Assembly: GCA_038235705.1 (NCBI GenBank)
Contig: JBBSTR010000005.1
Location: 5,294 to 69,293 of the forward strand
Direction of reading: 5' to 3'
DNA from: Mycobacteriales bacterium
GTDB taxonomy: Bacteria; Actinomycetota; Actinomycetes; Mycobacteriales; SCTD01
DNA length: 64,000 nucleotides
Position numbers and translations under genes: made by a program
The notes under the pieces: generated by a model
Told to the model about the DNA's origin: nothing
Seen by the model: only the letters and a program-made list of their open reading frames with translations
The model's database searches: none
Part shown: in pieces, positions 37,346 through 38,488 of the stretch
How positions within the stretch are numbered: the first letter of the stretch is position 1
Layout of the letters: every line of letters starts with the position of its first letter

Positions 37346-37389
37346 GCCTCCGCGTGGTGCTGCGCTCTGATGGCTCCTACCCTTATTGC

Positions 37390-37755
37390 GTGCACCCCGT
37401 CACGCGTCCGACGCTCTCCACGAGCCTCAGCGGTGGGCGGGTATCGGTCGCGGGGGTGTCGGCAGCTGGGCTCGTGAGCCGTTCCGCCCCGGTCGTGCCA
37501 CACCTGCGGGGAGGCAACCCACACGTGCTGGCCCTCGTCGGGATGCAGGCGGTGCTCACCGTCCTGGTCTGGGCGGTCACCGCGTGCCTCACCGCAGCGA
37601 CCGAGGCGTGGGCGCGACTGCGGCCTCGCAAGGTGCTGCTGACGCCTGACCCCGTCCAGGCACGTCTCGACGCCGCTCGGGTTCTTCGGCACGTACTTAT
37701 GAGCAGCCAGTGGCACGGTTTCGCGTCCGGACTGAGGGGTCCACCGGCGGCCTGA
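37390..37755 (+). CDS. Putative leader protein with a hydrophobic segment and C-terminal RGPP motif
   Basis: TACCCT -10 6 nt before GTG 37390; 121 aa; hydrophobic HVLALVGMQAVLTVLVWAVTACLTAA; ends GLRGPPAA*. Confidence 0.65.
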   Translation: MHPVTRPTLSTSLSGGRVSVAGVSAAGLVSRSAPVVPHLRGGNPHVLALVGMQAVLTVLVWAVTACLTAATEAWARLRPRKVLLTPDPVQARLDAARVLRHVLMSSQWHGFASGLRGPPAA

Positions 37756-37813
37756 AGCCGTCCTGCTCGACCCCCTCGTCTGCCCGCTGGCGGACACCCC
37801 TCCGGAGACCCCC

Positions 37814-38488
37814 GTGAATGACCCTTCGACCCGTGCTCGCCGCCCGGCCCGGCGGCTGGCCCTTGCCGCCGCCGCCGGCCTGATCCTGCTCACCTCTGCC
37901 TGCGGCGGCTCGAGCGGGCCGCTCGCGGTCGTCTCCGGCCCGTCGGCGGGTCCCTACCGCGGCGACGCCCTCGACCCGCAGGTCTCGCTGGCCGGTGCGG
38001 CGACCACCCGGTTCACCGCGACCGACGGCAGCACGACCACGCTCGCAGACCTGCAGCAGGGGCACCTCATGCTGCTCTACTTCGGCTATACCCACTGCCC
38101 GGACGTCTGCCCGACCACGATGGCCGACGTGGCAGAAGGGCTGCGCAAGAGTTCTGCGCAGGTCCGCGCGAACACACGGGTCGTCTTCGTGACGACCGAT
38201 CCGGAGCGCGACACGCCGCAGGTGCTGAAGCAGTGGCTGGCGAGCTTTGACGACGGGCTGCCGGCGTTCGTCGGCCTCACCGCACCGCTGACCGACATCG
38301 ACGCCGCGGCCAAGGCGATCGGGGTACCGCTGGAAGCGCCGGTGAAACAGACCGACGGCACCATCACCGTCAGCCACGGCGCCGAGACCTTCGCCTTCAC
38401 GGGCGGCAAGGCCCGGGTGGTCTGGCTCGGCGGGACCACCGCGTCGGACTACGCCCACGATCTCGGCCTGCTCGCCGGGAAGACCTGA
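37814..38488 (+). CDS. SCO1/SenC family copper chaperone lipoprotein
   Basis: Lipobox TSAC, YFGYTHCPDVCP, DPERDT, conserved His (VSHG). Confidence 0.95.
   Translation: MNDPSTRARRPARRLALAAAAGLILLTSACGGSSGPLAVVSGPSAGPYRGDALDPQVSLAGAATTRFTATDGSTTTLADLQQGHLMLLYFGYTHCPDVCPTTMADVAEGLRKSSAQVRANTRVVFVTTDPERDTPQVLKQWLASFDDGLPAFVGLTAPLTDIDAAAKAIGVPLEAPVKQTDGTITVSHGAETFAFTGGKARVVWLGGTTASDYAHDLGLLAGKT

Follow-up and report, generated by a model that had tools for sequence, protein, structure and literature searches.

Leaders that arrest ribosomes at Arg-Ala-Pro-Pro (RAPP) or Arg-Gly-Pro-Pro (RGPP) motifs and are linked to copper genes are an already known class, published in December 2025 (Fujiwara 2025, EMBO J, PMC12992588). 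The passages of that paper on the motif describe RGPP as giving the most robust arrest, refractory to EF-P, in several contexts, and RAPP/RGPP as depleted from proteomes and enriched near the C-terminus of small secretory or membrane proteins; open reading frames (ORFs) with these ends are found more often than expected ahead of YcnI, PCu(A)C and further metal genes, in Actinomycetota as well. Its section on Streptomyces lividans reports Arg-dependent arrest in all seven proteins with the motif near the C-terminus and describes SLIV_18480 as having four transmembrane (TM) segments, three conserved His, one Met and a metal-related downstream gene. Here we analyze a 64,000-nucleotide (nt) stretch of the genome of a Mycobacteriales bacterium (GCA_038235705.1, contig JBBSTR010000005.1; hereafter the window), with a G+C content of 71.5%. 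A 468-nt gap between a mycolic-acid-cyclopropane-synthase-type methyltransferase gene (CMAS) and a gene for an SCO1/SenC copper chaperone (SCO) contains an ORF that ends in RGPP. We put at about 0.55 the probability that this gap encodes a single-pass membrane peptide that stalls the ribosome at RGPP and thereby frees the SCO ribosome-binding site.

Two described leaders with a DUF2946 domain come close to such a system. CruR of Bordetella pertussis carries a RAPP motif and acts through Rho-dependent termination, as summarized by Roy et al. 2022 (PMC9426467), and the toeprint of CruR presented in PMC12992588 gives the stall register, with Pro-Pro in the P and A sites. CutF of Rhodobacter capsulatus, in the account given by Ozturk et al. 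2025 (10.1101/2025.02.05.636593), stalls at a proline-rich PPP motif, the stall being induced by copper and melting a stem-loop over the ribosome-binding site of the next gene. The leader region of the window is made up as follows:

37390–37755, + strand: maximal leader ORF, 121 amino acids (aa) plus stop (TGA, 37753–37755), ending ...SGLRGPPAA
37378–37383, + strand: TACCCT, 6 nt before GTG 37390, a -10-like hexamer solely by its TAnnnT pattern
37510–37514, + strand: GGAGG, Shine-Dalgarno (SD)-like, 10 nt before the in-frame GTG 37525
37525–37755, + strand: 76-aa form of the leader, the likeliest to be translated (upstream SD and public gene call)
37525–37599, + strand: codons of the hydrophobic segment VLALVGMQAVLTVLVWAVTACLTAA, residues 46–70 of the 121-aa form
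37735–37746, + strand: AGG GGT CCA CCG, encoding R116-G-P-P119, residues 116–119 of 121 and two residues before the stop
37756–37813, + strand: C-rich and G-poor spacer of 58 nt with 30 C (52%) and 14 G (24%)

The leader shows the traits of the RAPP/RGPP class: R-[AG]-P-P near the C-terminus of a protein of <300 aa, a TM-like hydrophobic segment upstream of the motif by the Kyte-Doolittle scale, and a position on the same (+) strand directly upstream of SCO, at 58 nt. The 19-residue hydropathy maximum is 2.18 at residues 46–64, and the peptide remains hydrophobic through residue 70, from where a linker of 47 residues leads to Pro118. The peptide has one Cys, five His and two internal Met; C66 and M52 lie within the hydrophobic segment, and H45, just before it, is lost if translation starts at 37525. 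An earlier sequence-only reading of the window had described the ORF from GTG 37390 with its ...SGLRGPPAA end and its distance to SCO, and all of these coordinates are borne out. As judged from its sequence, the ORF is probably a new member, minimal and orphan, of the RGPP arrest leaders already published for copper operons.

The start of the peptide is another matter. The frame is also open farther upstream, where it overlaps the CMAS gene, and after the CMAS stop GTG 37354 and GTG 37357 are in-frame starts upstream of GTG 37390. Leaderless translation from GTG 37390, as proposed by the sequence-only reading, found no backing: a promoter and terminator scan of 37200–37900, in which the promoter consensus was that of sigma-70 only, returned 0 sites, and the sole public protein match is a 76-aa gene call that starts at the SD-led GTG 37525 and matches residues 47–121. 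The translated form is thus most likely, from these sequence signals, the one of 76 aa. The ORF has a G+C content at third codon positions (GC3) of 0.795, and among the six frames its own ranks first in codon usage, with 0.05 bits/codon over the full length and 0.15 over the last 76 codons. The part that encodes the hydrophobic segment, 37525–37614, scores 0.74 bits/codon with a GC3 of 0.9, as compared with 0.55 for SCO and 0.69 for CMAS.

How rare is this combination in the genome? Among 23,394 stop-to-stop ORFs of at least 60 aa in all six frames, 86 have R[AG]PP within the last 12 residues, which by itself is therefore not rare near ORF ends here, and 486 have a TM-like segment in the last 130 residues. 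Only one has both, and it is the window leader ORF. Independence would predict 1.8 such ORFs (486 x 86 / 23,394), and it overestimates chance because TM-like ORFs are mostly real genes and motif ORFs mostly junk frames; the weight rests on the location of the single case. The 14 motif-ending ORFs with GC3 of at least 0.78 were considered as further arrest-peptide candidates in this genome and rejected; they look off-frame, and none is TM-like. Across the high-GC3 ORFs of the genome (980,895 residues), RGPP occurs 27 times and AGPP 57 times. Parts of the leader are also found outside this genome. The four sequencing runs with matching sequence all consist of DNA contigs, and no RNA or ribosome-profiling run was found to contain the locus. 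In an independent soil metagenome (run X4) a 732-nt contig spans 37472–38214, covering the leader core and 400 nt from the start of SCO; it differs at 63 positions and has 23 gap letters (~88% alike). In run X2 two short contigs over 37460–37726 have 8 and 0 differences. Relatives with the same leader-SCO junction therefore exist.

A search for ORFs ending in R-[AG]-P-P upstream of SCO, suggested by the sequence-only reading, showed that RGPP membrane ORFs recur there. Flanks of SCO homologues were taken from 30 places in relatives' genomes, 80 species genomes and 80 metagenome contigs, and motifs in the last 25 residues of an ORF were counted in the two larger sets wherever 300 nt or more of upstream sequence was available (134 loci); Streptomyces supplies most of them, and the counts are not independent. 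An RGPP-ending ORF lies upstream of SCO at 58 of the 134 loci, at 53 of them with GC3 of at least 0.8, as compared with 7–15 loci for each of the control motifs AGPP, AAPP, RGPA, GRPP, RPGP and PPGR, of which 0–4 have high GC3. RAPP-ending ORFs were found at 13 loci, 2 of them with high GC3. The RGPP ORFs belong to one family of ~200–300 aa with four hydrophobic segments (hereafter the 4-TM family), which fits the SLIV_18480 type, the match being to the paper's description rather than to its sequence. Conserved in the family are GQxxLHxxF in TM3, PMLLGHLLAAxxxGWLLRRGE in TM4 and the tail ...LQHTVIRRGPP, with a consensus end ...LQHTVIRRGPPx5-8LAA; 5–8 residues follow RGPP in 42 of 55 rows of the alignment. 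The C-terminal LAA is found in 39 of the 55 rows, those of Streptomyces type (L053–L129, L177, L182 and L209). Leu-Ala-Ala is the C-terminal tripeptide of the ssrA degradation tag, and a released full-length 4-TM leader might be a protease substrate; the window ORF ends in Pro-Ala-Ala.

In Streptomyces the order is RGPP leader, DUF1775/YcnI, then SCO (as in L057). An RGPP leader directly before SCO, the arrangement of the window, is found in five lineages:

L022, genome G039: leader directly before SCO, ending ...ASGRGPPVLRAA
L051, Frankia: RGPP leader directly before SCO
L054, Actinomadura: RGPP leader, then SCO-PCuAC-DyP
L058, Spirillospora: leader with a GC3 of 0.97, then an SCO-PCuAC fusion
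L133, metagenome contig: RGPP leader directly before SCO

The leader of L054 (Actinomadura sp. KC345 record) is split over two frames, with the N-terminal half in the frame of 2061–2696 and the C-terminal half with RGPP in 2278–2691, by a frameshift or a sequencing error. On another metagenome contig (L143) a second ORF, 4860–5525, ends in ...TRALRGPPSAHSFA ~2.9 kb downstream of the first RGPP leader.

The window ORF itself is not a detectable member of the DUF2946, DUF6412 or 4-TM families by sequence comparison. A profile built from 44 proteins of the 4-TM family gives the window ORF -2.3 bits (hmmsearch, E 0.15 for one target), and the same profile finds 0 of 27,560 ORFs at E ≤10 in the whole genome, which is 83% complete. 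In a multiple alignment (MAFFT) the RGPP motifs coincide and RVLRHVL falls on xLLxHxV of the family, with 10 inserted residues separating the two matched stretches; this is suggestive only. That the leader is a truncated 4-TM member was rejected as unsupported on the profile score, on BLASTP E values of 4.8 or worse against L022, and on the 180 nt between the CMAS stop and GTG 37525, which are too few for three more helices. Pfam gave 0 families at E ≤10 for the 121-, 99- and 76-aa forms, DUF2946 and DUF6412 included; the absence of DUF2946 and of a CxxC pair from this single-Cys peptide, claimed in the sequence-only reading, is thereby upheld. Pfam and NCBIfam together offer nothing credible for either the leader ORF or the 4-TM family, and Rfam has no match at E ≤1 in 37250–37900.

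How does this ORF compare with the described systems? Leaders of the SLIV_18480 type are, like the window ORF, same-strand membrane proteins with RGPP a few residues from the C-terminus, and they head copper operons of YcnI/SCO/PCuAC/DyP type in Actinomycetota, just as the window ORF heads an SCO operon. Their build is different: ~200–300 aa, four TM segments and conserved His/Met, as opposed to 76–121 aa and one TM segment, and 5–8 residues after RGPP as opposed to two. CruR and the window ORF are both upstream ORFs with a C-terminal R-A/G-P-P that head a copper operon, and the C-rich spacer of the window would suit the Rho-dependent output of CruR; however, the window ORF lacks CxxC and DUF2946 (which we take to be a Pfam PF11162-type domain with CxxC), has a TM anchor instead of an exported domain and comes from a different phylum. 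The output of CutF, a stem-loop over the ribosome-binding site that is melted by the stall, is the one proposed for the window leader, whereas its PPP motif, copper-induced stall and DUF2946 have no identified counterpart at this locus.

The closest layout is that of ApcA and ApdA, which reportedly are monitoring substrates of YidC and SecDF. ApcA/DUF6412-like proteins and ApdA share with the window ORF one N-terminal TM segment, a linker of ~40–47 residues and a C-terminal R-A/G-P-x; they differ in the downstream gene, SCO in the window and YidC or SecDF for ApcA/ApdA, and the window ORF has no Pfam DUF6412 match. DUF6412 (PF19950) is a 30-position model around DPDAPGRPRPRAP that matches in 5 of 41 genomes of relatives and nowhere in the window's own genome. 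The five ORFs concerned (L212–L216) are small, have one TM segment, end in ...DPDAPGRPRPRAP[SG] (...RPRPRAP[SG]) and lie directly upstream of YidC (60KD_IMP) in 5/5 cases. From its sequence, DUF6412 looks like the arrest motif of a YidC-monitoring peptide, and its layout suggests that it corresponds to ApcA; the term DUF6412 was not found in the literature searched. Nearest neighbours of the window leader in a protein language model are small actinobacterial hypothetical proteins with scores of 0.91–0.93, 26 of 30 matches carrying DUF6412; scores near 0.9 are also reached by 4–10% of shuffled proteins, and the likeness gives weak support. In its layout the window peptide is built like YidC/Sec monitoring substrates rather than like the 4-TM copper sensors. 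SCO-adjacent or single-TM members of the class may already stand in Appendix Figs S5–S7 of PMC12992588.

We then come to the RNA around the SCO start (GTG 37814, with the SD GGAG at 37804–37807). The sequence-only reading had pointed to complementarity, with a 4-nt bulge, between TCCGGACTGAGGGGT (37726–37740) and ACCCCTCCGGA (37796–37806), to a hairpin at 37778–37795 and to an alternative partner, GACCCCCTC, at 37769–37777; all of these are present. The elements of the predicted structure are:

37720–37731, + strand: 5' arm of the occluding helix (UUCGCG UCCGGA), -21 to -10 from the P-site codon
37801–37816, + strand: 3' arm, from UCCGGAG (containing the SD) through the SCO GUG
37778–37795, + strand: local 7-bp hairpin GUCUGCC/GGCGGAC with one G.U pair, present in all predicted folds

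In the equilibrium ensemble of 37690–37835, bases 37801–06 pair with 37726–31 at a probability of 0.75–0.88, and CGUG 37813–16, with the SCO start codon, pairs with 37722–25 at ~0.67. In the minimum-energy fold it is the alternative partner at 37769–77, and not ACCCC, that takes up the GGGGU arm. Only the UCCGGA:UCCGGA part of the helix reaches the SD. A helix that occludes the SD and the start codon is the dominant predicted structure. To quantify the effect of a stalled ribosome we computed, in a context of 261 nt, the cost of opening 37801–37819, holding 37726–37756 for a ribosome at RGPP with Pro118 in the P site. The free RNA costs 8.6 kcal/mol to open; a ribosome at RGPP brings this down by 1.9 kcal/mol to 6.7, and one at the stop codon by 0.03, leaving it at 8.6. 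The predicted relief of the ribosome-binding site is specific to the stall position but modest.

SD pairing was also surveyed in 37 of 43 rows, comprising 36 rows of the 4-TM family and the window; these are mostly from Streptomyces and not independent, and some automatically chosen downstream starts (e.g. L074, L095 and L129) may be wrong. The SD of the next gene is paired at P ≥0.5 with the coding region near the arrest site in 22 of the 36 family rows, and for 13 of all 37 rows the observed SD pairing is equalled by no more than 2 of 40 shuffles. Two registers stand out. In L058, L143, L148, L179 and others, pairing lies at +7 to +18 from the P-site codon; in L058 the 8 nt that contain the SD are exactly complementary to an 8-nt piece of the ORF tail right behind RGPP. 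In many Streptomyces the register is -28 to -23, where CUCCAG, the Leu-Gln codons of LQHTVIRRGPP, faces the YcnI SD CUGGAG:

L072, 1814–1953, and L077, L089, L102, L109, L111 and L113: rows with pairing in the -28 to -23 register

This register lies outside the footprint of a single ribosome, and a queued second ribosome or another route may therefore be needed. One stalled ribosome lowers the opening cost by 2.7–3.2 kcal/mol in L058, L143 and L179 and by 1.0 in L137; no reduction results in the -28 register, nor in L022, L054 and L133. By prediction, many members of the class thus have the SD occluded near the arrest site, and unmasking by one ribosome fits part of them, the window included. 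In the main text of PMC12992588 the terms 'stem', 'Shine-Dalgarno' and 'secondary structure' occur 0 times each, the supplements lying outside this count.

Sequence features, predicted pairing and recurrence at this locus, combined with RGPP stalling as known from the literature, lead us to infer that the ORF is translated, that it stalls the ribosome, and a direction of regulation and a release signal as follows. The peptide would be translated from the SD-led GTG 37525, and its N-terminal hydrophobic segment would insert into the membrane with the positive RLRPRK side in the cytoplasm, according to the positive-inside rule. The ribosome would stall at R116-G-P-P119, with the P site holding Pro118 (37741–43) and the A site Pro119, a register modelled on the CruR toeprint. 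With no ribosome stalled, mRNA 37720–37731 would pair with 37801–37816 and cover the SCO SD and GUG; a ribosome at RGPP would occupy the 5' arm and make the SCO ribosome-binding site easier to open. SCO would thereby be switched on and with it, owing to the close packing of the genes, Lipoprotein_15, CtaG and DyP. Membrane insertion of the hydrophobic segment would pull on the nascent chain and release the stall, and copper could modulate release through the few His, Met and Cys near this segment. The 47 residues are close to the distance at which, in force-profile work, membrane insertion pulls a nascent chain hardest. We also entertain, as a tentative and rather unlikely idea, that the arrest leader arose recently and in this lineage only, is laid out like a YidC/Sec monitoring substrate, lacks a metal-binding module and has been wired to a copper-chaperone/oxidase-assembly/DyP operon.

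A number of results weigh against an arrest leader at this locus. A six-frame search of 40 relatives gave a best non-self match of E 3e-4 that contains three in-frame TAG stops, 77 other genomes of the family yielded the same stop-ridden match only, and a word-indexed search of 5.8 billion clustered proteins and phmmer over 1.84 billion representative proteins each returned only the window's own 76-aa call; without homologues, purifying selection is not indicated for the ORF. The 76-codon form, at 0.15, ranks among the bottom 7% of true gene pieces, 5% of off-frame pieces score as high, and the last 46 codons score -0.23 bits/codon. This tail is rich in codons that make up 1.5–6% of their amino acid in this genome: GTT, CTT, GTA and CTT each account for ~2% and GGA, AGG and CCA for 3–6%, VLRHVL is encoded by GTT-CTT-CGG-CAC-GTA-CTT, and rare codons serve three of the four RGPP positions (AGG 0.061, GGT 0.125, CCA 0.03). 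A tail of rare codons is also the expected look of non-coding DNA. Conserved sets of His/Met or of Cys, which are the metal sites proposed in Fujiwara 2025, are absent from the peptide. As for the RNA, the relief of 1.9 kcal/mol is modest, and with the footprint masked the ribosome-binding site takes other partners. The fold of 37700–37830 is no stabler than shuffles (z -0.31; 76 of 200 fold at least as well), and the pairing of the SD with the footprint is no stronger than in 12% of 300 sequences with a shuffled upstream part and, by a second metric, in 6 of 40 shuffles; the predicted helix is not above chance. In 7 of 11 family loci the opening cost drops by <1 kcal/mol, stays flat or rises, and it drops by at least 1 in 4 of 11. 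SD unmasking is therefore not a general rule of the class, and one-ribosome unmasking as such a rule, upheld in these 4 of 11 loci only, was rejected. The proposal of the sequence-only reading that an RGPP stall controls the SCO operon by freeing its SD accordingly stands in part: its architecture matches the published class and recurs upstream of SCO, and folding 37700–37830 with and without the footprint gave both the SD pairing and its relief by a ribosome at RGPP, whereas the helix behind it does not exceed shuffled sequence.

It might be, then, that the leader ORF is not a gene and that the 468-nt gap consists of a promoter and a structured 5' untranslated region, its open frame, hydrophobic stretch and RGPP being products of chance in a sequence of 71.5% G+C. 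The ORF is an orphan in every search, its tail has very rare codons and a negative coding score, R[AG]PP ends are numerous in the six-frame set with 1.8 TM-bearing cases expected under independence, and the nearest SCO homologue by identity (L131, 55%) has no leader, SCO there following another gene by a few bases. We nevertheless consider this explanation unlikely. The sole ORF with both features sits exactly where the published class places such ORFs, before a copper-chaperone operon, relatives of which carry RGPP leaders; the independence estimate overstates chance; the TM part has the codon usage and GC3 of a gene; an SD precedes GTG 37525; the 47-residue spacing from TM segment to motif fits the layout of arrest peptides; and no Rfam family accounts for the region. 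It is also very unlikely, in our estimate, that the ORF encodes a real small membrane protein such as an accessory subunit, in which RGPP is only a slow spot handled by EF-P and has no regulatory role. Small membrane proteins are common in operons for cuproenzyme assembly, and RGPP is not fully excluded from the high-GC3 ORFs, as the counts above show. Against this stand the EF-P-refractory nature of RAPP/RGPP arrest and the arrest of all seven S. lividans motif proteins, as stated in the sections of PMC12992588 on these points; moreover, a motif two residues from the stop and beside an SD-occluding helix is what a leader needs and a subunit does not, and an accessory subunit would be expected to be conserved, which the leader ORF is not.

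A different output for the same stalling leader deserves mention as well. C-rich, G-poor tracts are what Rho uses, and the spacer could be a Rho loading site: a ribosome stalled at RGPP would keep Rho off so that SCO is transcribed, and after release and termination at UGA Rho would stop transcription, giving the transcriptional output of CruR, either alone or together with SD occlusion. Over 37740–37819 the excess of C over G reaches the 99.5th percentile of 80-nt windows across the 64-kb stretch, family ORFs are followed by 80 nt that are mildly C-rich (median excess 0.10, with 11 of 55 rows at or above the locus's 90th percentile), and the effect of SD unmasking is small and not general; CruR, with its RAPP motif, acts through Rho in the account of PMC9426467. 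C-rich coding strands are, however, common in 5' regions of high-GC genomes, the spacer is only 58 nt and partly folded into the 7-bp hairpin, and a predicted helix over the SD and start exists that responds to the stall position. We regard a Rho-dependent output as an unlikely but live alternative or additional route, and we prefer a leader that stalls at RGPP and frees the SCO ribosome-binding site.

The genes that would be governed by such a leader form a tightly packed operon downstream of CMAS:

Stop at 37345: mycolic-acid-cyclopropane-synthase-type methyltransferase gene (Pfam CMAS, E 1.9e-92)
37814–38488, + strand: SCO1/SenC copper chaperone (Pfam PF02630, E 2.1e-27), start GTG 37814, with a lipoprotein signal (...LTSAC)
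38550–38981, + strand: Lipoprotein_15 secreted-repeat protein (Pfam PF03640)
38978–40135, + strand: Caa3_CtaG cytochrome oxidase assembly factor (Pfam PF09678, E 4.9e-67 on 38984–40135)
40132–41373, + strand: DyP-type peroxidase (Pfam PF04261 and PF20628) with a twin-arginine-like N-terminus (TRRGLLG)

The CtaG ATG 38978 overlaps the Lipoprotein_15 stop (ATGA), and the DyP GTG 40132 overlaps the CtaG stop (GTGA). A copper and haem-protein maturation operon, as assigned by the sequence-only reading, is right in kind given SCO, Lipoprotein_15, Caa3_CtaG and DyP, while Pfam finds no YcnI or CopCD in it. The window SCO has no close orthologue in the 40 relatives, the best, at 45%, coming from another family of the order. 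A second SCO paralogue of the same genome (G000 contig C33, 22337–22786; L050) is 44% identical over residues 14–174; as in most relatives of the family, it follows a membrane-protein gene that ends ...ALLLARGAALTGG, and no RGPP ORF is found there. Converging on the end of DyP with a 25-nt overlap is a cation-diffusion-facilitator efflux gene (Cation_efflux and ZT_dimer, 41349–42389, - strand), followed by an MFS transporter gene (42431–43924, + strand). That a metal exporter adjoins a copper-maturation operon may not be mere coincidence.

If the stall is real, copper-linked RGPP leaders would comprise not only the large, His/Met-rich sensors known from Streptomyces but also a minimal peptide with one helix, in which the stalling and readout part is separated from the presumed metal-sensing part and which would offer a simple construct for the study of stall release. 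Should the window peptide be a monitoring substrate, cuproenzyme maturation would be tuned by membrane-insertion force or by a minimal His/Met/Cys site and not by a 4-TM sensor, and the locus would be a natural example of how easily an RGPP end makes a short membrane ORF a regulator. A spurious ORF, in turn, would show how readily a high-GC intergenic frame mimics an arrest peptide. The pairing of the next gene's SD around the arrest site across the family, in the two registers of -28 to -23 and +7 to +18, may be more useful than the locus itself. The minimal build of the window leader and the SD-pairing patterns of the family merit specialist attention.

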